Notes: generated by a model from the letters alone, not told the origin. 64,000 nt of DNA from Candidatus Amesbacteria bacterium GW2011_GWB1_47_19 (GCA_001002325.1 LCNZ01000005.1:18274-82273), one strand, 5' to 3'; counted from the stretch's first letter, positions 4,541-49,511 are shown. A program made the numbers and translations.

Positions 4541-5161
4541 TTAACCGGTGGAAGTTACCATGTAGCGCTCGGAAGAGAGCATGTATTTCGCACCGGATTT
4601 ACCTACCTGGCCCCAATAATAACCCCGCTTGGAAGCTCGGGTATTGGCAGCGGCCAGCCATTGACGGGACGATTCAACTTTCTGACGCAGTCCTGATATA
4701 ACGCTTTTAAGGTGAATGTAAAAGTTTTTATGATAAACACCCGGCGAAGAGGGCATTTGAGAGGTGGCTTTCTGGACCTCGGAGGCAAAATCTCCGGCGG
4801 TTTTGGCAAATGCCAAAATTTCCTGCTTCAGAAGCTGAATTTGCTGGCGGATTTCAGCCTGTTTTTGGCGGGAGTAAGTTTCCTGTTGCTGGCGGAGTCC
4901 TTCCAGCTGGCGGGTGAAAGCCGCTTCAGCCTGTTGTTTACCCCGGTTTTCAGCCTGTTCAATTTGTGACAGGGAAAGAGACTCATTGGGATTTAAAGTA
5001 CCTGATAAACCAAAAGACTGCGGGAGGTCGGCCGAAAAAGCCTGTTTTACCTGGGTGGTGGCGTCGGACGCGAAATCTTTGCCCAGATCGCGCAGAGCTT
5101 CCAGGAAGTTGTCGTGAACCGGACCCTGCCGGCGGGATTTATGGGGTGTATTTGAGGCCAT
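4541..5161 (-). CDS. hypothetical protein, Q-rich coiled coil
   Basis: 206 aa ORF with a long Q/E/R-rich heptad-like region. No family recognised. Confidence 0.4.
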   Translation of the reverse strand: MASNTPHKSRRQGPVHDNFLEALRDLGKDFASDATTQVKQAFSADLPQSFGLSGTLNPNESLSLSQIEQAENRGKQQAEAAFTRQLEGLRQQQETYSRQKQAEIRQQIQLLKQEILAFAKTAGDFASEVQKATSQMPSSPGVYHKNFYIHLKSVISGLRQKVESSRQWLAAANTRASKRGYYWGQVGKSGAKYMLSSERYMVTSTG

Positions 5162-7078: not shown

Positions 7079-7080
7079 TG

Positions 7081-7161
7081 TGTCGGAGAGAGGAGTCGAA
7101 CCTCCATGGGTTACCCCACAGGTTCCTAAAACCTGCGCGTCTGCCATTTCGCCACTCCGAC
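7081..7161 (-). tRNA. tRNA-Leu (anticodon TAG), type II long variable arm
   Basis: Cloverleaf folded by hand. Acceptor is gtcggag/ctccgac, anticodon stem caggt/acctg with loop tttagga, and T-loop ttcgact. Confidence 0.75.
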
Positions 7162-7244
7162 GCGGATACGCTCATATCGGAAACCTCTTTCCTTTCGCTT
7201 TCGCTCAAGGTTTCTCCGATATATCTCGCTATGCTCGCTATAAA

Positions 7245-7287
7245 GCGCGCGCCTGCCTGCCGGCAGGCAGGTCTGCCAGTTCCGCCA
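7245..7287 (-). repeat. orphan tRNA-Leu 5' fragment interrupted by a 20-bp palindrome
   Basis: gcgcgc + CCTGCCTGCCGGCAGGCAGG (7252-7271) + tctgccagttccgcca. The last segment matches nt 1-23 of tRNA-Leu(CAG) at 9617-9700, not the adjacent tRNA-Leu(TAG). Confidence 0.6.
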
Positions 7288-7316
7288 TCGCCGCCCGTAA
7301 TTTGAGTATATTTTAC

Positions 7317-7358
7317 CAAAAAAAAGCCCCGGCTCCTGCCCGATGCCGAGGCTTTTTG
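7317..7358. terminator. bidirectional rho-independent terminator candidate
   Basis: An A-run, then gccccggctcctgcccgatgccgaggc hairpin, then a T-run. It lies downstream of the minus-strand methyltransferase gene. Confidence 0.4.
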
Positions 7359-7411
7359 GAAATTCCACCGTCCCGATTTTCATCGGAACCGCGGAACCTG
7401 ACGGGATTGTA

Positions 7412-8173
7412 CTATGATAGCGGATTAATGTCAACTCTATGGGATAATATAAACAGACTGGGACCAAAATAAACATGGGAAAGAAGCGGTTGGGAAAAAT
7501 ACTCCAGGATTAACAGCAGATGTCGGGGAAGAAATTTTTTAAGCTTTTGATAACGAAAATTGGATACGGAAAGGACGGTATCGACAAAAAACCCTGACCT
7601 TCGAAGTGATTTGATGACTGCCAGGGGATGATGATTGACAAAAGGTATAGACATCTTTTTGATGTTTTGGAGACTGCGTTTTTCAAGCGGAGTAAGCGGT
7701 ATCCGGGGACCGAAAAACAAACTGCGGAAACGGGATTTGAAGTTTTGGGAGTTGGCAAATTCCAGGATGAACCGACCACCGGGCGTTAGGAGGCGGTGAA
7801 TTTCGGTAAAGGTGGGTACGAGATCGGGCAAATGATGGGCAACCCGGATTAAGAGAGCCAGGTTTACCGATTGGGGATAAAGACGGATTTTCTGGGCAGA
7901 ACCGGACATAATGAAAATATTTTTATTTTTTTTGAGTTTGATGCGTGCCTGACGGCGGTGGTTCGCCGACGGGTCGACCAGAATAATCCGGGTACAGAAT
8001 TTTGTGAGCAGAGGTTCCAAACGGCCAAATCCTCCGCCAATATCGGCACAAACAGGAAAATTGCTGCCGGACAGTAAACGGTTTAAAGCTACGATTTCAG
8101 CCTGATGTTCGTAATCACGATTTTTCCAGTAATCGAGGTAGGAAAAATCCGGATCGTCGTAATGGTGAGTCAT
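7412..8173 (-). CDS. Class I SAM-dependent methyltransferase
   Basis: Motif I VCADIGGGFGR and motif post-II PGGRFIL. Confidence 0.75.
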   Translation of the reverse strand: MTHHYDDPDFSYLDYWKNRDYEHQAEIVALNRLLSGSNFPVCADIGGGFGRLEPLLTKFCTRIILVDPSANHRRQARIKLKKNKNIFIMSGSAQKIRLYPQSVNLALLIRVAHHLPDLVPTFTEIHRLLTPGGRFILEFANSQNFKSRFRSLFFGPRIPLTPLEKRSLQNIKKMSIPFVNHHPLAVIKSLRRSGFFVDTVLSVSNFRYQKLKKFLPRHLLLILEYFSQPLLSHVYFGPSLFILSHRVDINPLS

Positions 8174-8184
8174 GGGGAAAGCGG

Positions 8185-8754
8185 CTATTCCAAATCAGTC
8201 AAAAATTGGTTGATAGCTTTGGCCCAGGCACCGTCTTTTTCCAGGGAGGGAGGGGTATATTTCGCCATTATTTCCTCGGGTGTATCCAGTCCCTGGTCGA
8301 TATATTTACGTTTCAGGGTTTTGGCGACTGTTTCCATGGCTTCGGGGTAATTTCTGAAGCGGATAACCTGGTCGCCGTAGATGCCATATCCCCAGCAATT
8401 GTGTGACTCTTTGGGAATAATTTTACAGAGGTTGGACTCCTGTCGGGCGATGGCCACCAACAACCGATAATCAAGACGATATTTATCCGAAATGGCAATT
8501 ATCTGATCGGAATACGGTTCCAGAGGTGATCCATATCGGTGAAGATACCTGCGGATTGACAAAGCCCGAGCGTCTGAATAAGTAAATGCTGCGGACAAAT
8601 AGGGGGTGAATTCGGGAGATGAAATTCCCAAGACTTCCGGGGAAAAGGGTGAAGCCGGAACAATTGGCAAAGACATAAAAAGCAGCCTGACCGTGCCAAG
8701 AAACAAAAGGGGTAGCCCCAGGAAAAAAGTGCCTAGCCAAAATATACGGCGCAT
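8185..8754 (-). CDS. hypothetical secreted protein, possible peptidoglycan hydrolase-like
   Basis: N-terminal TM/signal. The QESNLC...NCWGYGI segment loosely resembles the SLT-type catalytic-Glu region. Weak call. Confidence 0.3.
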   Translation of the reverse strand: MRRIFWLGTFFLGLPLLFLGTVRLLFMSLPIVPASPFSPEVLGISSPEFTPYLSAAFTYSDARALSIRRYLHRYGSPLEPYSDQIIAISDKYRLDYRLLVAIARQESNLCKIIPKESHNCWGYGIYGDQVIRFRNYPEAMETVAKTLKRKYIDQGLDTPEEIMAKYTPPSLEKDGAWAKAINQFLTDLE

Positions 8755-8760
8755 AATTTT

Positions 8761-8806
8761 GAGCGGCTAAGGGGAATCGAACCCCTGTCACCCCGCCATG
8801 GCGGGG
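8761..8806 (-). repeat. duplicated 3' 30 nt of tRNA-Gly(GCC) followed by 16-bp perfect palindrome
   Basis: 8761-8790 is identical to 9072-9101. It is immediately followed by CCCCGCCATGGCGGGG (8791-8806). Confidence 0.75.
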
Positions 8807-8816
8807 AGTTCAGCTA

Positions 8817-9065
8817 TTAACAAGTATTACCTAGTAACCGCTTCATGGCATTTCCGCCTTTGTAAGATTTTAGCACTTTTTCTCTTTGTTTAGCTTCGAT
8901 GGGGATGGAATATTCTTCTTTATAAATTAGGATCCACTCCCCTCTCCTGCGAGTTGAAATATTTTGACCACGATTGTGTTCGGATAGACGACGGGATATA
9001 TCGTTGGTACTACCTATGTAATGCCGACCTGAGTAAGTATTTCTGAGAATGTATGTATAGAACAT
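8817..9065 (-). CDS. GIY-YIG nuclease family mini-protein
   Basis: YTYIL...GRHYIGST...RRLSEHN, the GIY-YIG core and Arg/Glu-His motif. 82 aa. Confidence 0.8.
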   Translation of the reverse strand: MFYTYILRNTYSGRHYIGSTNDISRRLSEHNRGQNISTRRRGEWILIYKEEYSIPIEAKQREKVLKSYKGGNAMKRLLGNTC

Positions 9066-9072
9066 TCTAATG

Positions 9073-9143
9073 AGCGGCTAAGGGGAATCGAACCCCTGTC
9101 ATCTCCTTGGCAAGGAGAAGTTCTACCATTGAACCATAGCCGC
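9073..9143 (-). tRNA. tRNA-Gly (anticodon GCC)
   Basis: Acceptor gcggcta/tagccgc, anticodon loop ttGCCaa, T-loop ttcgatt. Confidence 0.85.
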
Positions 9144-9147
9144 AGTG

Positions 9148-9220
9148 TGCCGAGAGCTGGAGTCGAACCAGCATCTGACGCTCTTCAGGCGCCCGCCGTA
9201 ACCACCTTGGCTATCTCGGC
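9148..9220 (-). tRNA. tRNA-Phe (anticodon GAA)
   Basis: Acceptor gccgaga/tctcggc, anticodon loop ctGAAga, T-arm gctggttcgactccagc. Confidence 0.85.
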
Positions 9221-9295
9221 GAAGGAATGAAATGACTGAGCTGAGATACAGCGTAAGTCGTATCTCGGCAAGGAACGAGCTTCAGTTGGATTTTA

Positions 9296-9478
9296 CTACA
9301 TCCGGGGAGGGCTTAAACAGTATCCAGTGCGGTCTCTCCCTTTTTTTAAAAATCTAAAATCTGTATTAAATAGTTTATCAACTTGAGCCGCGGATGGTCT
9401 AATACCTGTATTTTTTTCCACCAAATCTTGAAAATTAGATATTATTTCTTCCCGAAGTTGTTCTTGGGAGGTAGCCAT
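9296..9478 (-). CDS. hypothetical small ORF (60 aa)
   Basis: ORF only. Sits between tRNA-Phe and tRNA-Val. No similarity recognised. Confidence 0.2.
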   Translation of the reverse strand: MATSQEQLREEIISNFQDLVEKNTGIRPSAAQVDKLFNTDFRFLKKGRDRTGYCLSPPRM

Positions 9479-9523
9479 TTATTGATTGTATACCTGGGGT
9501 CAATAGTTGCTGACGCTGTCTGG

Positions 9524-9597
9524 TGGACGATGAGGGACTCGAACCCCCGACCCCCGCTGTGTAAAAGCGATGCTCTAACCAGCTGAGCTAATCGTCC
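9524..9597 (-). tRNA. tRNA-Val (anticodon TAC), CCA encoded
   Basis: Acceptor ggacgat/atcgtcc, anticodon loop ttTACac, T-arm gggggttcgagtccctc, followed by cca. Confidence 0.85.
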
Positions 9598-9616
9598 TGA
9601 GATTATATTACAGCTG

Positions 9617-9700
9617 TGGGCAAGAGAGGACTTGAACCTCCACTCCCTTGCGGGAACAGGCTCCTGAAGCCTGCGCGTCTGCCAGTTCCGCCACTTGCCC
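9617..9700 (-). tRNA. tRNA-Leu (anticodon CAG), type II
   Basis: Acceptor gggcaag/cttgccc, anticodon stem caggc/gcctg with loop ttCAGga, long variable arm, T-loop ttcaagt. Confidence 0.85.
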
Positions 9701-9945
9701 TAGAACTGATTCATGAGCTCCGCAATTATCTCACGTCCGAAACCGGATTTGAAGAATTTCTCAAGATTCCTGGCCTGTATTCTGGTATCGCACTCTTCGA
9801 CGTGAATCAATCGCAACGGCAAATGACCTCTTGTGGAGGGCGATTTACCACTTTCGTGTTGATACAGGCGTCTTTGTAAGTTGTTGGTTATCCCTTTGTA
9901 AATGAATTTATCCCCGTAACTTTGAAGGATATAAACAAAATACAT
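9700..9945 (-). CDS. GIY-YIG nuclease family mini-protein
   Basis: MYFVYILQS...KFIYKGITNNLQRRLYQHE. The stop codon overlaps nt 1 of tRNA-Leu(CAG). Confidence 0.8.
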   Translation of the reverse strand: MYFVYILQSYGDKFIYKGITNNLQRRLYQHESGKSPSTRGHLPLRLIHVEECDTRIQARNLEKFFKSGFGREIIAELMNQF

Positions 9946-9948
9946 GTT

Positions 9949-10073
9949 TGAAGCCTGCGCGCCTGCCTGCCGGCAGGCAGGTCTGCCAGTTCCGCCACTT
10001 GCCCTAGAACTGATTCATGAGCTCCGCAATTATCTCACGTCCGAAACCGGATTTGAAGAATTTCTCAAGATTC
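9949..10073 (-). repeat. direct repeat of 9665-9769 (GIY-YIG 3' end plus tRNA-Leu nt 1-36) with inserted 20-bp palindrome
   Basis: 13 + 92 nt are identical to 9665-9677 and 9678-9769. Perfect palindrome CCTGCCTGCCGGCAGGCAGG at 9962-9981 sits between them. Confidence 0.8.
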
Positions 10074-10194
10074 TTATGAGAAAAATGAATCAATCAAACT
10101 GCTTATATTGATGTACCCAAACCAAAATGTCATATGTCTTACGCGAAAAAAATATAAAATTGTCAATTCATTGGGTATAATTAAGAAAGTAGGA

Positions 10195-10278
10195 GCCGGG
10201 ATGCTGAAACTGGTAGACAGGCATGCTTGAGGGGCATGTGTCAGCAATGGCGTGGAGGTTCGAGTCCTCTTCCCGGCA
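10195..10278 (+). tRNA. tRNA-Leu (anticodon GAG), type II
   Basis: Acceptor gccggga/tcccggc, anticodon stem catgc/gcatg with loop ttGAGgg, long variable arm. Confidence 0.8.
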
Positions 10279-10282
10279 CACT

Positions 10283-10366
10283 GCCGGGGTGGCGAAATGG
10301 TAGACGCAAGGGCCTTAAGAGCCCTCGGTCCAAAAGACCATGCGAGTTCGAGTCTCGCCCCCGGCA
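10283..10366 (+). tRNA. tRNA-Leu (anticodon TAA), type II
   Basis: Acceptor gccgggg/ccccggc, anticodon stem agggc/gccct with loop ctTAAga, T-arm gcgagttcgagtctcgc. Confidence 0.85.
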
Positions 10367-10368
10367 CA

Positions 10369-10764
10369 ATGAGTTTTGAGTGTGTTAATTGTCATTACCT
10401 GGTACGGGAAGGTAAAAGATATGCCGGGACGGAAAACAGAAACCATTGCACGAAATGTTTGTGGTCATTGCATGCGGATTTAAGACCTGGTGACAGAAAA
10501 GCATTGTGCGGAGGAAAAATGAATCCCGCGGGGCTTACTTTTAAGCGGGTGAAAAAAGATAAGTACGGGAAAGAAAAGGTTGGAGAATTGATGCTAGTAC
10601 ACCAATGCGTAAAATGCCTAGAAGTATCAATAAACAGGATTGCGGCGGATGACGACCCGGTGGAAATAATGAATCTCGTAAATTCCGGTTTTTCTGTTGA
10701 AGGAATCAGTGTGCTGGATGAGGCTGACAGGTCGGAAGTACGCAGGCAGCTATTCGGGGTGTAA
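10369..10764 (+). CDS. RNHCP-domain zinc-ribbon protein
   Basis: Literal RNHCTKC signature plus additional CxxC pairs. The ATG lies 2 nt after tRNA-Leu(TAA). The ORF-track upstream extension from 10252 covers two tRNAs and is rejected. Confidence 0.6.
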   Translation: MSFECVNCHYLVREGKRYAGTENRNHCTKCLWSLHADLRPGDRKALCGGKMNPAGLTFKRVKKDKYGKEKVGELMLVHQCVKCLEVSINRIAADDDPVEIMNLVNSGFSVEGISVLDEADRSEVRRQLFGV

Positions 10765-10775
10765 AATTATAAACA

Positions 10776-10848
10776 CGGAGAGTGGCGCAGCTGGTAGCGC
10801 GCATCGTTTGGGACGATGAGGCCCCGGGTTCGAGTCCCGGCTCTCCGA
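10776..10848 (+). tRNA. tRNA-Pro (anticodon TGG)
   Basis: Acceptor cggagag/ctctccg, anticodon stem catcg/cgatg with loop ttTGGga, T-arm ccgggttcgagtcccgg. Confidence 0.85.
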
Positions 10849-10904
10849 CAAAGTTGAGGCGAAGTTTATTTTTAGCGTGAAATGGTTTAGGATATTGTCA
10901 GAGT

Positions 10905-11345
10905 ATGTGGAAAAAATCGTGGGGAGTGTTTGTAGGTGCGGGACTGGTAGCCGGTTTGTTGCCGGTGATGGTCTGGGGGGTTAGTTCCGGAACCAGGACA
11001 CTGTTCTCCACCCGGGCTCAGACACATGAACTGAGATTATGGTGGGAGCCGGCGGAAGCGACCCTGCGGATAGATCAGGCGATGAAATTTAAGCTGATGG
11101 CAAATGTTGAAAGTAAAAACGGAATTCCGGCACTGGAAATGGAATTGGATATCCCCAAGGGGATACTTGTAGCCCCGAAGATTGTCAGATACGGTAAACT
11201 TATCGGTACCTCAGTGGTCGGTGAAGTGGATGTAGTGGCGGTAAACCAGGGAGATTTTTTGATTGGTATCATAGAAGACAAAGTAGTTACCGGCTATCCT
11301 GATATCACCATAATAGCCTCTCCGGTAAAAATCAAAGTCAGGTAA
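10905..11345 (+). CDS. hypothetical secreted protein (first gene of pilin-like operon)
   Basis: N-terminal signal/TM. Ends 4 nt before the next gene. Confidence 0.45.
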   Translation: MWKKSWGVFVGAGLVAGLLPVMVWGVSSGTRTLFSTRAQTHELRLWWEPAEATLRIDQAMKFKLMANVESKNGIPALEMELDIPKGILVAPKIVRYGKLIGTSVVGEVDVVAVNQGDFLIGIIEDKVVTGYPDITIIASPVKIKVR

Positions 11346-11348
11346 AGT

Positions 11349-11795
11349 ATGAAGTTCAAGCCTGCCCTGTCCCTGATCGAATTATTGCTGGTAGTATCGC
11401 TGATCGGCATTCTGTCGCTGCCGGGAGTATTGGGAATAATTAATATCAGAGCCCGCCAGTCACTGGATGTATCTACTAACAAGTTTGCCGAGATTATGCG
11501 ACAAGCCCACATTTTTTCGAGGGAAAACAGAGAAAGTTTGAGTTGGGGAGTAAAAGGAACCGATAAGAATAGTTACCAACTGGTGACCCGGGATGCGACC
11601 AAGACAGTGACAGTCAGGGAAAAGCACAGACTGGAATCGCCGACAGTTTTTATAATTTATCCGTTTGAAGTGTGGTTTGACCAGGGAACGGGAAATACCG
11701 AAATCAACCGGATTTTCATGACCTATGCGTCCAAGGGCGGTACCCGAGTGGTGGGTTTGTCCCCGACCGGTTTAGTAGTTATCGGTATCCTATGA
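11349..11795 (+). CDS. Type IV pilin-like protein (prepilin-type N-terminal domain)
   Basis: N-terminus MKFKPA|LSLIELLLVVSLIGIL is a class III signal. Ala, not Gly, sits at position -1. Confidence 0.7.
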   Translation: MKFKPALSLIELLLVVSLIGILSLPGVLGIINIRARQSLDVSTNKFAEIMRQAHIFSRENRESLSWGVKGTDKNSYQLVTRDATKTVTVREKHRLESPTVFIIYPFEVWFDQGTGNTEINRIFMTYASKGGTRVVGLSPTGLVVIGIL

Positions 11796-12283
11796 AACCC
11801 CGGGCGTTTACAATAATTGAAGTTGTACTGGCGATAACTCTTTTAATCATTTTGGTAACCAGCGTATATCCCCTGGTGGGATGGATGAGAACCAAATCGA
11901 TACGTCTGCAATACGACAGCCAGGCAGCGCTGGTACTTCAGGAAGGGATGGAGGCGGCATACAGCGTTATGATGTCCGACTGGAGCGGCTTTCCTCCCGG
12001 ACCGGGTTATTTTTATCCGATAATTGATGCGTCTTCGGGAACACCAGTCTGGAAGCTGACTGCCGGAATACAATCTAATTATCAGGCCAGGTTTGAAAGA
12101 AAAATACTGATATCCCAGGTATGCCGGAGGCTGGTAACCGGTCAGATGGAAAATACTCCGTGCCAGGCCGATTATCCTGCCGATCCATACAGCCGGAAAG
12201 TTACAACCACCGTAAGCTGGAGGGAATCAGGAAAAACCAAGAGTATTAACGCCCAATTATTAACGGTGAGTATAAACCGATGA
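11792..12283 (+). CDS. Type IV pilin-like protein (prepilin-type N-terminal domain)
   Basis: MKPRA|FTIIEVVLAITLLIIL. ATGA overlap with the upstream gene. Confidence 0.7.
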   Translation: MKPRAFTIIEVVLAITLLIILVTSVYPLVGWMRTKSIRLQYDSQAALVLQEGMEAAYSVMMSDWSGFPPGPGYFYPIIDASSGTPVWKLTAGIQSNYQARFERKILISQVCRRLVTGQMENTPCQADYPADPYSRKVTTTVSWRESGKTKSINAQLLTVSINR

Positions 12284-12726
12284 AGAAGGGAATATCTCTA
12301 ATAGAATTGTTAATTGCCATGGCGCTGGCGGTGTTTGTATTTTTGCTGGTGATATCGATGCTGATGACAATACTAACGGCAAATGCCAGAAGCAGCCGGC
12401 AGGAGACGTTTGAGCAGACAAAAAACGATTTGCAGAGCGAGCTGACAAACGCTGTTAAATGGGGTAAGGATATCAGCTGGTCTTCAGGACAGCTGATCGT
12501 AGACGGTGTAGCGTATTCGAGGATCAGCAATGTGATAATAAAAAACGGACAGTTGTTGACGCCACCGCAAGTCAAAATCACCAACTGGACAATAACCGAG
12601 TTGGGGCAGGGAGATCCGAACATCAGTTTGCGCATGGAAATAGCTATGGAAAACGCAGCTAACAGCAGTATTAAAGACAACATGATTTTGACAGTTACAA
12701 AAAGGCAGACGATCATTGTGAAATGA
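12280..12726 (+). CDS. Type IV pilin-like protein (prepilin-type N-terminal domain)
   Basis: MKKG|ISLIELLIAMALAVFVF. ATGA overlap with the upstream gene. Confidence 0.7.
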   Translation: MKKGISLIELLIAMALAVFVFLLVISMLMTILTANARSSRQETFEQTKNDLQSELTNAVKWGKDISWSSGQLIVDGVAYSRISNVIIKNGQLLTPPQVKITNWTITELGQGDPNISLRMEIAMENAANSSIKDNMILTVTKRQTIIVK

Positions 12727-14021
12727 AAACCATGCGAAATACCAACGGTGTTGCTGTGATGATGCTGGTGCTGGTAGTGTCCATGATAGCGGCTTTTATG
12801 GCCATTGCCTGGCAGTCACGGATTTTATTGGGGGTATACAGGAATAAAGCCCTGTCGGACATTATTGCCGTTTCTTACCATGGGGAGTCCAAGGCCAATG
12901 ACATCCTGGGCAAATTCCTGGGAGATTATCCGGGGGCATTTACTTATAATTTTGAAACTCCATGGGAAGATTTGGGAGACGGAACACAATTGAAAGTCGA
13001 GGGAAAACTGATTGATAATAAGGAAACACTAAATATTACAGCCAAGCGAACGTATGCCAGCACCCAATATCAGGTTACCAGGGAGACGGAAACTTTTTCG
13101 GCGGAAGCTTCGGATGCCGAGATAGTATTTTCGCTGGACTGCACGGGATCCATGGCAGCTGCCGCTTGTGCGGATACAAATATTTGCAATTACCAGCCTC
13201 CCGGGAGTCCGTTTTACGCGATTACCAGGATGGACAAACTGAAAGAGGCCTTGATTGTTTTTCTGGACAAGCTGGAAGCGCTTCCAGGGCATGAAAAAAT
13301 AAAGATCGGACTCTCAGTGTTTACATTAAAGAGCGACTGGATGTATACCAGCTACGCTGCGGACGGAACCCCGACCGGACAGGCAATAAAACCCGATAAT
13401 GCGATATCGTCAGATATTCCGGCTATTAAAAGCGCCGTCAATAACTTTCTGGGAAGAAGCGGTGAAGAGCACAGTATGGCTTGTAAAAAAATTCTGACCT
13501 TTACGAATGTAGGAGGGGGACTGATTTTCGCCCATGACTACCTGAAGACCAGAAAACCACTGGGAAAGAAACAGATAGAAATATTGGTTACCGACGGCTG
13601 GTCTAATCAGAGAACTCCACACGCGGGATGCAGCCAAAATATTTTTTGCCCCGGGGATGCGATTTATTGCAGCGGCTATGGTTATACCTGCCCGGTTCCA
13701 TTACCGAACTGTCAGATGCATGGTTGGGAGTTTACAGCCTGTGCGCTGGCAAGTACCCAGCAACAATGGCAACCTATATCTTTTGCGTCCGATCCCTGGC
13801 CTGTCGGAGTACGTGACCCTGAGGTTGATATGTATACGGTGGGTGTATATTCTGATCCGCCTAATTATATAAATTCGGCATTCACCAATTTTTCAAATAA
13901 GTATTTTCAGAATGATGAGGCTTTTCAATTACCGGTTATATTGTCGGATATTTTTGATGAAATATTAGAAAGTTTTACAGTAATTAATGTTCAGCGACTG
14001 GTACCTTCGCCGATAAGATAA
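12723..14021 (+). CDS. von Willebrand factor type A domain protein with N-terminal TM (pilus-associated adhesin-like)
   Basis: MIDAS motif DCTGSM (DxSxS) and downstream TDG. N-terminal hydrophobic helix. ATGA overlap with the last pilin-like gene. Confidence 0.7.
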   Translation: MKTMRNTNGVAVMMLVLVVSMIAAFMAIAWQSRILLGVYRNKALSDIIAVSYHGESKANDILGKFLGDYPGAFTYNFETPWEDLGDGTQLKVEGKLIDNKETLNITAKRTYASTQYQVTRETETFSAEASDAEIVFSLDCTGSMAAAACADTNICNYQPPGSPFYAITRMDKLKEALIVFLDKLEALPGHEKIKIGLSVFTLKSDWMYTSYAADGTPTGQAIKPDNAISSDIPAIKSAVNNFLGRSGEEHSMACKKILTFTNVGGGLIFAHDYLKTRKPLGKKQIEILVTDGWSNQRTPHAGCSQNIFCPGDAIYCSGYGYTCPVPLPNCQMHGWEFTACALASTQQQWQPISFASDPWPVGVRDPEVDMYTVGVYSDPPNYINSAFTNFSNKYFQNDEAFQLPVILSDIFDEILESFTVINVQRLVPSPIR

Positions 14022-14046
14022 AATGGGTTATAATTCTTCGGGAATT

Positions 14047-14088
14047 GCGGGTGTAGCTCAATGGCAGACCTGCCTGTCGGCAGGCAGG
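14047..14088 (+). repeat. 5' 22 nt of tRNA-Gly(TCC) followed by 20-bp near-palindrome
   Basis: 14047-14068 gcgggtgtagctcaatggcaga is identical to 14341-14362. Then CCTGCCTGTCGGCAGGCAGG at 14069-14088. Confidence 0.75.
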
Positions 14089-14108: not shown

Positions 14109-14327
14109 ATGAAAAGGTATTTTGTATATATCACCCGCAGTAAATCAACCGGCAGATTTTATACCGGTATGACAAACGACTTGCAAAGAAGGTTAAAACA
14201 GCATAACCGACTAACATCAAATACCCTTGCTACAAGGAAATTGACCGACTTTGAAATTGTTTACAAAGAAATGCAACAAAGCAGAGCAGAAGCAAGAAAA
14301 GTAGAGAGTTTCGTGACAAAATTGTAA
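14109..14327 (+). CDS. GIY-YIG nuclease family mini-protein
   Basis: MKRYFVYITRSKSTGRFYTGMTNDLQRRLKQHN. The ORF-track start at 14061 lies inside the tRNA fragment/palindrome. The ATG at 14109 is preferred. Confidence 0.75.
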   Translation: MKRYFVYITRSKSTGRFYTGMTNDLQRRLKQHNRLTSNTLATRKLTDFEIVYKEMQQSRAEARKVESFVTKL

Positions 14328-14340
14328 AATTCGGTAGCAT

Positions 14341-14411
14341 GCGGGTGTAGCTCAATGGCAGAGCGCCAGTTTTCCAAACTGGTGACGAGGGTCCGATTCC
14401 CTTCACCCGCT
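14341..14411 (+). tRNA. tRNA-Gly (anticodon TCC)
   Basis: Acceptor gcgggtg/cacccgc, anticodon stem ccagt/actgg with loop ttTCCaa, T-loop tccgatt. Confidence 0.85.
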
Positions 14412-14561
14412 CAATAGCGAAATGGTTTTGTGTTTTCTCCAATTTTCCTCAAGAAATCGATCTTTTCCCGAGTTCTAGCCACCATTTTTAGCGTTTTATC
14501 TTTGGCCTGGAAAAAATCATACCGGTAACCGGAGTCGGACCTAATTTGTAGAAAAAATGAG

Positions 14562-21407: not shown

Positions 21408-21698
21408 TTAGGACATCTTTAAAGTGTTTTTCAAAATTTGTTTTAGTTGATTGTGACCGTAGCCACTTTTTAGATATATTTCTCTAGCTTCGGCATCTTG
21501 ACGATTTTGAAAATATTCGTAATGAATTAATTTTAAAGGTCGGCGGGTTTTGGTGGAATCGACTTTGCCTAAATTGTGATCTTGTAGGCGACGCTTTAAA
21601 TCGTTGGTGAAGCCAATATAAAGTTTTAAATCTTTTTGAGATTGAAGGACATAGACGTAGTATTTGTTTGTAAAAACGTCGGACGTTTTTGTAGGCAT
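21408..21698 (-). CDS. GIY-YIG nuclease family mini-protein
   Basis: KYYVYVLQS...LKLYIGFTNDLKRRLQDHN. Confidence 0.8.
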   Translation of the reverse strand: MPTKTSDVFTNKYYVYVLQSQKDLKLYIGFTNDLKRRLQDHNLGKVDSTKTRRPLKLIHYEYFQNRQDAEAREIYLKSGYGHNQLKQILKNTLKMS

Positions 21699-21729
21699 AA
21701 GTTCGGATGTCCCGTCAAACGGGACTATG

Positions 21730-21802
21730 GGTGGATGACGGGTGATGCTCCCGCTACCTCCGCATCCACAGTGCGGCGCTCTACTGATGAGCTACATCCA
21801 CC
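21730..21802 (-). tRNA. tRNA-His (anticodon GTG) with encoded G-1
   Basis: Extra 5' G, acceptor gtggatg/catccac, discriminator C, anticodon loop ctGTGga. The T-loop reads agcatca, which is atypical, so moderate confidence. Confidence 0.65.
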
Positions 21803-48866: not shown

Positions 48867-49511
48867 ATGCCGGTGACACTTTACAACAGACAGAGACAAA
48901 TTTTAGATTTTATCGCCCAATTTATCCAGAGGAACGGTTACTCCCCTACTCTTCAGGAAATTGCTGGAGCTTTGGGAGTATCTTCCCTGGCAACGGTTCA
49001 TGAACACTTGGAAGCAATGTCTAAAAAAGGCATCATCAAAAGGTTTGAGGGCACGGTCCGGGGGATAGAAATCCTGGATAAGGAGGTGGCGGCCCGCCAG
49101 GCGGCGGGCCCAGCGGCCGTGGAACTGCCTATCTTAGGATTTATTGCCGCCGGGCAGCCGATTGAGCCGTTTACCGATCCCAACGCCACGTTCGGAGTAC
49201 CGCCACTGATGGTGTCACCGAAAAAGAGATGTTTCGTCCTGCAGGTAAAAGGTGAATCCATGATTGAAGCGGGGATTTTTGACAGGGACTACGTGGTGAT
49301 TGAACAAACAGAAACTGCAAAAGACGGGGAAGTGGTGGTAGCTTTGTTGGATAACGGGTTTGCTACCCTGAAGAGATTCTTTAAGGAGGCTACCAGAATC
49401 CGCCTGGAACCGGCCAATTCCAGCATGTCCCCTATTTTCGTGGCAGGTGATAAGGTCAGGATACAGGGGAAAGTAGTGGGAGTTATCAGAAGGTATAATC
49501 AGGTAAATTAG
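48867..49511 (+). CDS. lexA: LexA repressor
   Basis: N-terminal wHTH (LTxRQxxIL, TLQEIA) and C-terminal S24 peptidase with the Ser...Lys dyad region (VKGESMIEAGI...VVALLDNGFATLKRF). Confidence 0.85.
   Translation: MPVTLYNRQRQILDFIAQFIQRNGYSPTLQEIAGALGVSSLATVHEHLEAMSKKGIIKRFEGTVRGIEILDKEVAARQAAGPAAVELPILGFIAAGQPIEPFTDPNATFGVPPLMVSPKKRCFVLQVKGESMIEAGIFDRDYVVIEQTETAKDGEVVVALLDNGFATLKRFFKEATRIRLEPANSSMSPIFVAGDKVRIQGKVVGVIRRYNQVN

Follow-up and report, generated by a model that had tools for sequence, protein, structure and literature searches.

The DNA analysed here is a 64,000-nt stretch from Candidatus Amesbacteria bacterium GW2011_GWB1_47_19 (GCA_001002325.1 LCNZ01000005.1:18274-82273), referred to below as the window. 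Within these 64 kb a 20-nt palindrome, CCTGCCTG[C/T]CGGCAGGCAGG (PAL), occurs three times, compared with a mean of 0.01 in shuffled sequences, and the earlier note's description of two perfect copies and one single-base variant was reproduced, coordinates included. No further copy with three or fewer mismatches is present elsewhere in the 64 kb. PAL is composed of two 10-nt arms that adjoin directly, with no spacer, and forms a hairpin with an 8-bp stem and a 4-nt loop (-13.9 kcal/mol as RNA), which fits a short GC-rich palindrome of the REP type; the C9->T change in copy 3 makes a G.U pair on the ORF-encoding strand. The features of the PAL sites and of the neighbouring cassettes are as follows.

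7080-7161, minus strand: site 1, intact tRNA-Leu(TAG), an isoacceptor other than Leu(CAG)
7162-7251, minus strand: site 1, dead-tRNA continuation (cgcgcgc, 7245-7251), then a spacer of about 85 nt with an internal inverted repeat
7252-7271, no strand: PAL copy 1, perfect 20-nt palindrome
7272-7296, minus strand: site 1, dead tRNA-Leu-type 5' piece, about nt 1-23 plus 2 extra bases, with a differing acceptor stem
8760-9143, minus strand: 3'-type sister cassette with tRNA-Gly(GCC) (9072-9143), GIY-YIG ORF (8817-9065) and dead tRNA 3' end (8760-8790)
9616-9700, minus strand: site 2, intact tRNA-Leu(CAG)
9700-9945, minus strand: site 2, GIY-YIG mini-gene, 81 aa, its stop codon overlapping the first tRNA base
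9949-9961, minus strand: site 2, tRNA-Leu(CAG) nt 24-36 in the dead copy, directly past PAL
9962-9981, no strand: PAL copy 2, perfect 20-nt palindrome
9982-10004, minus strand: site 2, dead tRNA-Leu(CAG) nt 1-23
9982-10073, minus strand: site 2, upstream copy of a 93-nt repeat, 100% identical to 9677-9769
14047-14068, plus strand: site 3, dead tRNA-Gly(TCC) nt 1-22
14069-14088, no strand: PAL copy 3, one-base variant C9->T
14109-14327, plus strand: site 3, GIY-YIG mini-gene, 72 aa from ATG 14109
14341-14412, plus strand: site 3, intact tRNA-Gly(TCC)
21408-21801, minus strand: fourth GIY-YIG gene (21408-21698), directly after tRNA-His (21729-21801)

All three PAL copies are exact 20-nt additions in the D-loop of truncated tRNA 5' copies, with an intact tRNA downstream and no target duplication. 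The earlier note had the palindrome following a tRNA 5' fragment; a fragment does precede PAL, but tRNA sequence resumes beyond it, and PAL is therefore an insertion within a longer dead tRNA copy and not the end of a fragment. The intact tRNAs do lack the insert, as had been claimed (9616-9700, 14341-14412 and 7080-7161), and two of the three fragments are indeed paired with a GIY-YIG gene and an intact tRNA, the ORFs lying between them at sites 2 and 3. The assignment of the fragments as Leu(CAG)-like twice and Gly(TCC) once holds for sites 2 and 3, whereas at site 1 the acceptor stem differs and the neighbour is tRNA-Leu(TAG).

At site 2 the 93-nt repeat comprises the GIY-YIG gene's final 70 nt and nt 1-23 of tRNA-Leu(CAG), with a promoter-like TTCAAA-17-(TG)GATAAT in the 70-nt GIY-YIG part of the upstream copy, and on removal of PAL a 36-nt tRNA match spans the junction; the continuation past PAL is shorter and diverged at sites 1 and 3 compared with site 2. 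The dead piece at site 1 reads gggcggcgatggcggaactggcaga on the minus strand, its last base being the D-loop A directly before PAL, and the 41 nt around PAL are the same at sites 1 and 2. The spacer (7162-7251) contains no GIY-YIG ORF, and site 1 is read as a decayed cassette, similar to those at three loci from elsewhere (L086, which retains a 7-codon GIY-YIG remnant, L016 and L032). Site 3 is base-for-base the same in three independent assemblies, NCBI GCA_003488165.1 among them. An in-frame ATG upstream of the site 3 gene, at 14061, would translate through PAL.

Three of the window ORFs match Pfam PF01541 (GIY-YIG) with E values of 1e-12 to 1e-14, while the fourth matches only a GIY-YIG profile made for this analysis; the GIY-YIG ORFs show an additional weak match to a group I intron endonuclease model. 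The encoded proteins (72-96 aa) consist of the catalytic domain only, so that of the features of a Seg-like homing endonuclease the GIY-YIG catalytic domain is present and a separate DNA-binding domain for a long site is absent. These mini-genes tightly adjoin tRNA genes. In the 5'-side cassettes the original 5' part of the tRNA is displaced upstream as a dead copy, PAL lies 8-39 nt upstream of the ORF, and the intact tRNA follows the ORF. The dead copy of the 3'-type sister cassette instead has its anticodon arm replaced by another palindrome, of 16 nt (CCCCGCCATGGCGGGG, 8791-8806), and the fourth locus has a small hairpin between tRNA-His and the gene and no PAL.

Several known classes of element were considered and rejected. 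What is inserted at the PAL sites is a 220-250 bp ORF, and it is the 5' end of the tRNA that is duplicated, which together with the lack of an att-type 3' tRNA duplication speaks against a tRNA-att integrative element; no integrase was found among the window ORFs listed, six of which were scanned against Pfam. A MITE would not fit the lack of an internal region between the arms and of a target-site duplication, nor a tRNA intron (group I or bulge-helix-bulge) the position of window PAL in truncated tRNA pieces with no Rfam intron match. An intrinsic terminator was discarded, since the terminator-like sites do not include PAL and neither strand has a T-run after it.

The arrangement of fragment, PAL, GIY-YIG gene and tRNA, which the earlier note had suggested looking for in relatives, recurs in L039 (WWE3), L105 (Giovannonibacteria), L112, L154 (a viral contig), L161-L165 and L174. 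We also compared 80 metagenomic loci chosen only for carrying a relative of the window GIY-YIG gene. Nearly all of these relatives adjoin tRNA genes on the same strand, and those 5' of the tRNA nearly always have PAL or another GC-rich hairpin in the dead copy; exact PAL stands just upstream of the ORF in 8 of the 80 loci and variants in 5, with proteins there 44-69% identical. PAL is absent from cassettes on the tRNA 3' side among the GIY-YIG loci compared. At L170, PAL-bearing fragments are found on both sides of the ORF.

The exact 20-mer was found in at least 120 genome stretches, including, among the matches listed, 37 from CPR, 37 from Bacteroidota and 18 from PVC; the hosts are mainly CPR, Bacteroidota (cultured isolates too) and Omnitrophota/Planctomycetota. 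It is also present in 39 viral stretches, compared with 0 and 1 for two control palindromes, and some viral contigs have 4-8 copies or variants between genes, with no GIY-YIG gene in the parts examined. About 85-90% of the roughly 170 PAL copies listed from other genomes and viral contigs lie away from tRNA fragments and GIY-YIG genes, and a GIY-YIG gene or remnant is within 100 nt of only about 10 of them. A repeat found mostly away from such sequences, the pattern that the earlier note had set against its own reading, is thus what is seen across genomes, but not within the window, where PAL is no high-copy REP-type repeat and the dead tRNA sequence that contains all 3 copies amounts to about 150 nt. 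The earlier note had not recognised PAL as a described element; the 20-mer is likewise absent from the literature searched, where a half-site search returned an unrelated match only, and no Rfam family matches it. As a cross-phylum 20-nt insertion, PAL seems not to have been described before.

Approximately 10% of the listed copies are in or beside tRNA genes. Eight copies share one D-loop position (21/22-23/24), namely the three window sites and L016, L039, L089, L105 and L154, and this position is struck in Leu, Gly, Lys, Arg, Met-type and other tRNAs of several phyla. The insertion is non-random and its D-loop position recurrent, as the earlier note had argued. PAL is also observed at tRNA positions of about 10, 11, 13, 17/18, 31/32 and 45 and in the T-loop; L147 is the one locus among those listed where PAL lies in what looks like a complete tRNA, and there it resembles a long variable arm. 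Outside tRNA genes the sites include intergenic DNA, other hairpin-like sequences, older PAL copies and protein genes, with PAL in frame in FtsK, GatB, RfbB and ribosomal protein S6 (ftsK, gatB, rfbB, rpsF). Because 20 is not a multiple of 3, the in-frame state needs a second change: the gatB genes of L248 and L249, 97.9% identical, differ by 20 nt after CAAA and a frame-restoring +1 T, with no duplication. FtsK orthologues up to 82% identical are without the LPAGRQ insert.

Filled and empty paralogous pairs with identical flanks were identified for window site 2 (93+13 nt), L039, L112, L154, L174 and L179, and no target-site duplication is seen in these 6 paralogous pairs or in 1 orthologous pair. 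Where PAL is nested in PAL (L019, L044 and L022), it always lies one base off the dyad, equal to a 2-nt stagger between strands, and PAL is also found within degenerate PAL-like palindromes (L126/L149 and L145). Hairpin loops are clearly preferred in the best-resolved cases, but only modestly over all sites. The proposal of a site-specific mobile process recognising the D-loop, made in the earlier note, thus survives in part: PAL is linked to GIY-YIG mini-genes and acts like a mobile element's hairpin, but it is not specific to the tRNA D-loop and other targets are used.

Our preferred reading, held tentatively and with a probability of about 0.45, is that PAL is a discrete 20-nt GC-rich hairpin insertion element that spreads across phyla with tRNA-parasitising GIY-YIG cassettes and also lands alone; it is best read as the shortest of the small palindromic mobile repeats. 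The three window copies would be products of this insertion process, and they would be found in dead tRNA because only there is a D-loop hit harmless. At site 2 the promoter-like sequence accompanies the dead copy. The cassette nuclease is the most likely opener of the target, or at least the probable carrier of PAL between genomes, with the solo copies as its putative non-autonomous passengers. For the joining step, a hairpin strand might be captured at a nick, or short-patch copying from another PAL copy might take place; to our knowledge GIY-YIG nucleases do not join DNA, and we know of no enzymology for the insertion step. More doubtful is a stronger form, which would make PAL the smallest mobile DNA element observed so far, a bare 20-nt hairpin cut out or copied and put into DNA hairpin loops by the catalytic-only GIY-YIG proteins acting as structure-specific transposase-like enzymes.

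An unlikely alternative is that PAL is a REP- or PATE-like hairpin moved by an unlinked enzyme (an IS200/IS605- or RAYT-type single-strand transposase, or another), with an indirect GIY-YIG link in which the cassettes create dead tRNA copies, the sole places where hits on a D-arm target are tolerated. The distance of most copies from GIY-YIG genes and the multi-copy viral contigs are consistent with this, as is the gathering of several different hairpins in the dead fragments of L167, and a hairpin-forming insertion with no target duplication is expected of IS200/IS605-type (PATE) single-strand elements. However, the IS200/IS605 type inserts 3' of a fixed 4-5 nt target, and beside PAL there is neither such a target, a fixed tetranucleotide included, nor a GTAG/CGTC head; the flanks are variable, the sole bias being an A at -1 in 41% of them, and no transposase was seen near PAL. 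Moreover, GIY-YIG blocks that are shared or inserted have PAL as their left edge: L167 and L168 have one identical block in common, which on its left side stops 3 nt from PAL, and at L063 an HsdS gene carries an in-frame insertion of a GIY-YIG domain with PAL as its 5' edge. PAL is also kept 100% identical in cassettes whose proteins are only 61-69% identical.

This conservation across diverged cassettes would also suit a selected cis part, in which PAL and the other hairpins are RNA hairpins in the GIY-YIG 5' leader, expressed from the captured tRNA promoter, that stabilise, process or throttle the message or prevent misfolding between the dead tRNA piece and the live one, the solo copies being spill-over. 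We consider this improbable. Other cassettes carry unrelated hairpins, some built of local sequence (L232), so the hairpin may be selected for a cassette role and not be a mobile passenger; 5'-type cassettes as a rule have a hairpin upstream of their ORF, a family NCCTCCGAWTCGGAGGN with three outer pairs (T-A, A-T, C-G) is found in L171, L176 and L193, and promoter-like sequences lie just upstream of dead fragments. Where the orientation of the cassette is known, PAL variants show 7 transitions, and 6 of these lead to G.U on the ORF strand, though the count is small (p ~0.06). A cis part, however, leaves the 20-nt insertions in gatB, ftsK, rpsF, rfbB and PAL itself unexplained, and the spacing to the start codon ranges over 8-39 nt, there is no U-tract, and the surrounding leader folds no better than shuffles (z = +0.3 to -1.5).

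The narrow form of the earlier note, a tRNA-specific element marking a D-loop homing or integration site, is very unlikely: tRNA-linked sites, at about 10% of the copies listed, do exceed the roughly 1% or less of genome length that we estimate for tRNA, and one D-loop position recurs across tRNA types and phyla, but about 90% of the copies listed are outside tRNA sequence, those within it occupy several other positions as well, neither an integrase nor an att-type 3' tRNA duplication accompanies PAL sites, and non-tRNA copies with verified empty sites contradict it. A perfect palindrome of some 20 nt is what one typically sees with linker artefacts, and most PAL records are metagenome assemblies, yet an adaptor, linker or assembly error is hardly credible given flanks of contiguous tRNA or gene sequence, kept reading frames, the same structure in three independent assemblies, degenerate copies, and PAL in cultured isolates, long-read complete chromosomes and one curated complete CPR genome.

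If PAL is a cassette-borne insertion element, one identical 20-nt sequence has been written into the genomes of unrelated phyla, in tRNA and essential genes (ftsK, gatB, rpsF), and since such genes are among the targets, PAL would be an unnoticed source of insertions, with loops of 4-8 aa (about 7 aa) in conserved proteins. Abundant, uncharacterised small GIY-YIG proteins would gain a testable activity on tRNA genes, and the tRNA-gene debris common in CPR genomes would be accounted for. Should these proteins move PAL, a common family without assigned function would acquire a role, and CPR, Bacteroidota, PVC and phages a new mode of moving DNA. PAL may also serve as a sequence tag for finding cassettes and recent insertion events in metagenomes.

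Among known systems, T4 SegB offers a precedent for the preferred reading: it is a free-standing GIY-YIG endonuclease in a tRNA cluster that recognises a conserved tRNA-gene motif, leaves 2-nt 3' ends and takes adjacent tRNA sequence with it as it spreads (PMC2330249). The window cassettes similarly have a GIY-YIG gene lodged among tRNA genes, but they encode catalytic-only proteins of 72-96 aa, adjoin a single tRNA and include dead pieces with a hairpin insert, an insert that the abstract of the SegB paper does not report. Group I introns, some with homing endonuclease genes, are found in Patescibacteria tRNA genes, where they are self-splicing and interrupt live tRNAs within or beside the anticodon loop (PMC13011429); palindromes, hairpins and GIY-YIG do not turn up in a term search of that paper. 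PAL shares with them insertion in CPR tRNA genes, but has no intron features and sits in dead copies. Fungal mitochondrial GC clusters and palindromic repeats are short GC-rich mobile palindromes of AT-rich genomes, sometimes within genes, that coexist with GIY-YIG homing endonuclease genes; the GC clusters usually have short target duplications. They differ from PAL in compartment and in sequence, and no bacterial cross-phylum counterpart of them was found in the literature searched. Each species has REPs of its own sequence, in tens to hundreds of copies; they have a GTAG or CGTC head and seldom occur within genes. REP/REPIN sequences associated with RAYT are dispersed, GC-rich, extragenic hairpin palindromes of 20-40 nt with presumed single-strand movement (overview in PMC3733652). 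PAL is likewise a short, GC-rich, dispersed hairpin palindrome; unlike REPs it is the same across phyla, has 3 copies in 64 kb, is headless, and lies in tRNA arms and in frame in genes. Finally, the Rickettsia palindromic elements (RPEs) of Ogata et al. in 2000 are reportedly selfish sequences found in frame in conserved protein genes and in RNA genes and tolerated in surface loops. RPEs measure about 100-150 bp and are known only from Rickettsia. PAL resembles them as a palindrome found in RNA genes and in frame inside conserved protein genes, and differs in being 20 nt, in its distribution over many phyla, and in keeping frame only with a second change.

The 20-bp palindrome (PAL) occurs three times in the window, as the earlier note had stated, against 0.01 matches expected in shuffled window sequence, and no fourth copy was found within the 64 kb at up to three mismatches. 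A chance or microsatellite origin is ruled out by the shuffles together with control palindromes. The three copies and the features around them are as follows.

PAL copies and adjoining features (window positions; for PAL and tRNA genes, the method of detection is in brackets)
7252-7271, PAL copy 1, CCTGCCTGCCGGCAGGCAGG (sequence search)
9962-9981, PAL copy 2, CCTGCCTGCCGGCAGGCAGG (sequence search)
14069-14088, PAL copy 3, CCTGCCTGTCGGCAGGCAGG (sequence search)
7080-7161, minus strand, intact tRNA-Leu(TAG), adjoins site 1 (ARAGORN, Rfam)
9616-9700, minus strand, intact tRNA-Leu(CAG), adjoins site 2 (ARAGORN, Rfam)
14341-14412, plus strand, intact tRNA-Gly(TCC), adjoins site 3 (ARAGORN, Rfam)
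9945-9700, minus strand, site 2 GIY-YIG ORF, 81 aa, its stop codon overlapping the first tRNA base
14109-14327, plus strand, site 3 GIY-YIG ORF, 72 aa

All three copies lie directly after a tRNA 5' piece ending in ...TGGCAGA (tRNA orientation), as previously described. What had been missed is that the tRNA sequence resumes past PAL: at site 2, tRNA nt 24-36 (cgcgcaggcttca, 9949-9961) follow immediately, and when PAL is removed a perfect 36-nt match to the intact tRNA is restored. PAL is thus a precise insertion of 20 nt that duplicates no target bases, positioned between D-loop A21 and the 3' strand of the D-stem in a dead tRNA copy (a truncated duplicate of part of a tRNA gene). The window contains several kb of non-coding DNA, yet all three PALs are confined to ~150 nt of dead tRNA sequence, which excludes random accumulation in neutral DNA.

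Site 2 is composed of a 93-nt repeat, PAL, tRNA nt 24-36, aac, the GIY-YIG ORF, the 93 nt again and the rest of the intact tRNA. The repeat comprises the last 70 nt of a GIY-YIG gene plus tRNA nt 1-23, and includes a promoter-like TTCAAA-17-(TG)GATAAT, identified by consensus match only, ~18 nt upstream of both the dead and the live tRNA starts. Site 3, which is base-identical in three independent assemblies, consists of tRNA-Gly nt 1-22, PAL, ~7 diverged tRNA bases, the GIY-YIG ORF and intact tRNA-Gly. At site 1 a Leu-type fragment is followed by PAL, cgcgcgc, ~85 nt without an ORF and tRNA-Leu(TAG), a layout resembling decayed cassettes elsewhere (a cassette being a small GIY-YIG gene abutting a tRNA gene, plus a dead tRNA copy). 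One example is L086 (L-numbers denote other genome, metagenome or viral stretches), where a PAL-bearing dead tRNA-Ser piece has seven codons of a GIY-YIG gene between it and the intact tRNA. Between the tRNA cluster and site 3 (10905-14021), several consecutive genes have prepilin-type N-termini (e.g. KGISLIELLIAMALAVF) and are followed by a 432-aa protein that has no Pfam match.

Of the four window GIY-YIG ORFs, three show the catalytic domain by Pfam; the fourth matched only a GIY-YIG profile built in this analysis. Besides those at sites 2 and 3, GIY-YIG genes are found on the 3' side of tRNA-Gly(GCC) and tRNA-His. Downstream of the former lies a dead tRNA 3'-end copy whose anticodon arm is replaced by a different palindrome, CCCCGCCATGGCGGGG (8791-8806). 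This is a second palindrome family, with a related CCCCGCCATAGCGGG... in a dead tRNA-Gln piece of L232 (~1440-1470). Upstream of the ORF, the otherwise near-identical loci L232 and L237 are distinguished by an indel of 28 nt flanked by 8-nt direct repeats (gcgggatc). Its inner palindrome, gcgggatcccgc, consists of the 5' end of the tRNA itself joined to the reverse complement of that end, so some hairpins derive from local sequence. Additionally, GGCCCGCCAGGCGGCGGGCC (49091-49110), with an 8-bp GC stem and an AGGC loop, sits in frame (AARQAAG) in the LexA hinge (gene 48867-49511) and resembles a further hairpin insert within a conserved gene; its distribution is narrow, with one match in IMG/VR. 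Named Amesbacteria proteins match this LexA at every residue, which assigns the genome to Candidatus Amesbacteria (CPR).

Among loci selected for PAL, a GIY-YIG gene or remnant lies within ~100 nt of the palindrome in ~10 cases (two in the window, L039, L063, L080 as a variant, L086, L089, L105, L112 and L154). In L063, an HsdS gene contains an in-frame GIY-YIG domain insertion, and PAL forms its 5' boundary. Stronger evidence comes from the reverse test, in which the sole criterion for choosing 80 metagenomic loci was that they encode a relative (37-100% identity) of the window 81-aa protein, the single query used. Nearly all of these relatives abut a same-strand tRNA gene. Where the gene lies 5' of the tRNA, a dead 5' tRNA piece is present together with a GC-rich hairpin 8-39 nt upstream of the ATG; this hairpin is the exact PAL in L160-L165, L170 (twice) and L174, a PAL variant in L166-L169 and L179, and an unrelated hairpin in the equivalent place in L171-L176, L193, L201 and L232. 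PAL is 100% identical across cassettes with protein identities of 61-69%. A block of PAL variant, ORF and tRNA is identical between L167 and L168, and its left edge is 3 nt from the palindrome. No PAL is found in cassettes located 3' of a tRNA; these are followed by 17-45-nt copies of the tRNA 3' end. Viral scans for additional cassettes gave four loci only.

Several features of individual cassettes were also observed. In L167 (~1410-1440), one dead tRNA-Leu fragment bears two different GC-rich hairpin inserts: its D-loop holds the PAL variant, and cccgcctccggcggg is inserted at position 9/10. At window position 9700 and in L160, L161, L169 and L179, the stop codon of the GIY-YIG gene either shares the first base of the tRNA or is 0-3 nt away from that base; if the two were transcribed together, RNase P would therefore cleave at the stop codon or within it. 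A small GIY-YIG ORF inside the 23S rRNA gene of a Saccharibacteria MAG (L097, ~4750-5050) has no adjoining PAL.

With PAL removed, 11 junctions map to the interior of tRNA sequence, and several others are no more than 60 nt from a tRNA. Eight are at tRNA position 21/22-23/24 (the three window sites, L016, L039, L089, L105 and L154); other positions are ~10-13, 17/18, 31/32, 45 and the T-loop. At position 45, in a viral tRNA-Met (L147, 2239-2330), PAL separates the variable region from the T-stem, yet the locus is recognized as a tRNA by ARAGORN, which reads PAL as a long variable arm; the related contig L122 has PAL at 8616 and a T-arm deletion. In L019, L022 and L044, PAL is nested in an older PAL. 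The insertion point is in each case offset by one base from the dyad, following position 11 of either strand, which amounts to a 2-nt stagger. Degenerate PAL-like palindromes enclose PAL in L126/L149 and L145. At about one-tenth of sites, PAL occupies the apex of a longer inverted repeat (14/124 sites have exact arms of ≥6 nt, vs 2.2 expected). An MFE-based test was weaker (stems ≥8, 4.7% vs 1.9%, p = 0.02), and a rule that PAL is always in a hairpin loop has modest support over all sites. Among folded flanks, the adjoining base is A in 41% of cases and T in 9%. At low-GC loci 28% of copies are inside ORFs vs 76% for random positions; PAL is simply depleted in coding DNA, with no fixed position relative to gene starts or stops. 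Many solo PALs lie between degenerate 7-8-nt tandem repeats (aattacg..., gagtgatc..., cctcacc..., gtgagag/cctctaa...; L107, L053, L061, L047, L083, L085, L121/L152 and L146), in some of which the two sides are complementary. Half-sites outside PAL are mostly degenerate PAL and not the ends of a 1-2 kb element, so PAL as the footprint of a larger transposon bounded by PAL halves was rejected.

PAL has no stop codon in any frame and forms part of the open reading frame, mostly as LPAGRQ, in FtsK (L014), GatB (L110), RfbB (L022), ribosomal protein S6 (L049), a GT39-family protein (L074) and several others. FtsK orthologues at ≤82% identity lack the insert. The decisive comparison is a gatB pair with 97.9% DNA identity, L249 being empty (...GATGACGGT-CAAA-CCGTCTAT...) and L248 filled (...GATGATGGT-T-CAAA-[CCTGCCTGACGGCAGGCAGG]-CCGTCTAT...). 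The insert is exactly 20 nt, without duplication, directly after an A and within a small hairpin (GACGGT-CAA-ACCGTC); four bases upstream, a separate +1 T brings back the reading frame (G-Q-T to G-SN-LPDGRQ-A). The third gatB (L110), with 89-90% DNA identity to the other two, has a perfect PAL near the same spot and a net +12 nt. Together these genes indicate that the unit is 20 nt and that second-site changes bring it into frame. A search for genes disrupted by a bare 20-nt PAL, and perhaps repaired at the RNA level, gave no convincing case, the candidates being spurious ORFs in GC-rich DNA. These genic copies also bear on the proposal that PAL and the other hairpins are selected RNA hairpins of the cassette leader. 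Compensatory outer pairs in one hairpin family and the G.U pairs produced on the ORF strand by 6/7 PAL transitions favor a leader hairpin, but it cannot account for PAL in genes, and we consider it unlikely.

The exact 20-mer was found in at least 120 stretches of a one-genome-per-species collection, the record taxonomy labels of those listed including CPR (37), Bacteroidota (37) and Omnitrophota/Planctomycetota/Verrucomicrobia (18), with Bdellovibrionota, Desulfobacterota, Nitrospirota and others also among the matches listed. Some "Gammaproteobacteria" labels are unreliable; the L022 RfbB is Levybacteria at NCBI. Cultured Bacteroidota with PAL include Winogradskyella, Flagellimonas, Longitalea, Flavivirga, Aquiflexum, Agriterribacter and Aestuariivivens; Winogradskyella echinorum KCTC 22026 is one such isolate. 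PAL is present in 39 IMG/VR stretches, as compared with 0 for an arm-swapped palindrome and 1 for the window LexA hairpin, controls of like make-up. Some viral contigs have 3-8 copies or variants; in one with ≥6 copies a search for enzymes recognized only a terminase. At the end of viral contig L157 (3926-4142), a 21-nt unit, ccatgcctaccggcaggcagg, is repeated in tandem at least 10 times; this unit is a PAL variant with one extra base. The exact PAL is absent from 50,697 GenBank phage records, and plasmid matches, among those listed, are only short (~20-nt) or imperfect. PAL has a G+C content of 80%, against host averages of 40-48%. The earlier suggestion of a site-specific process at the tRNA D-loop, to be checked in related genomes, is upheld in that the same D-arm position recurs at eight junctions; it does not extend to the other tRNA positions, the nested and genic copies, or the copies outside tRNA sequence in many phyla and viruses.

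The data show the cassette structure, an exact duplication-free 20-nt insertion, repeated use of one D-arm position, insertion into PAL itself and into genes, and spread across phyla. As an explanation we favor, at a probability of roughly 0.45, a mobile hairpin that travels with GIY-YIG cassettes. The cassettes would spread as free-standing homing endonuclease genes aimed at tRNA genes, restoring the tRNA with their own carried copy and leaving the displaced 5' part and promoter upstream. T4 SegB is reported to spread in this way, with recognition of a conserved tRNA-gene motif and cleavage leaving 2-nt 3' ends (PMC2330249); by resemblance, the 2-nt stagger of the nested insertion points may fit a symmetric GIY-YIG cut. 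PAL would be inserted at nuclease-opened or hairpin-prone sites, with hits in live tRNA genes lost and hits in dead copies persisting. Movement of PAL by an unlinked single-strand transposase, with dead tRNA copies as merely tolerant targets, appears improbable, about as much so as the leader hairpin.

The earlier note did not recognize PAL as a described element, and our searches agree: no paper found and no Rfam family covers it. Rfam gave no match at PAL in the window or at 17 other loci, which led us to reject a known RNA family. The 20-mer was not found in the literature, and the half-site matched a single, unrelated paper; for GIY-YIG, tRNA, palindromes and CPR, the nearest reports concern fungal mitochondria, T4 SegB and CPR introns only. 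PAL differs from REP elements in the absence of the head motif, from MITEs in having no target duplication or internal region, and from IS200/IS605-type elements in having no fixed target. It is far shorter than Rickettsia palindromic elements and is common to unrelated phyla. The window GIY-YIG genes are similar to Seg-type homing endonuclease genes, but have no DNA-binding domain. In its mode of working, PAL nevertheless resembles REP elements, Rickettsia palindromic elements and mitochondrial GC clusters.
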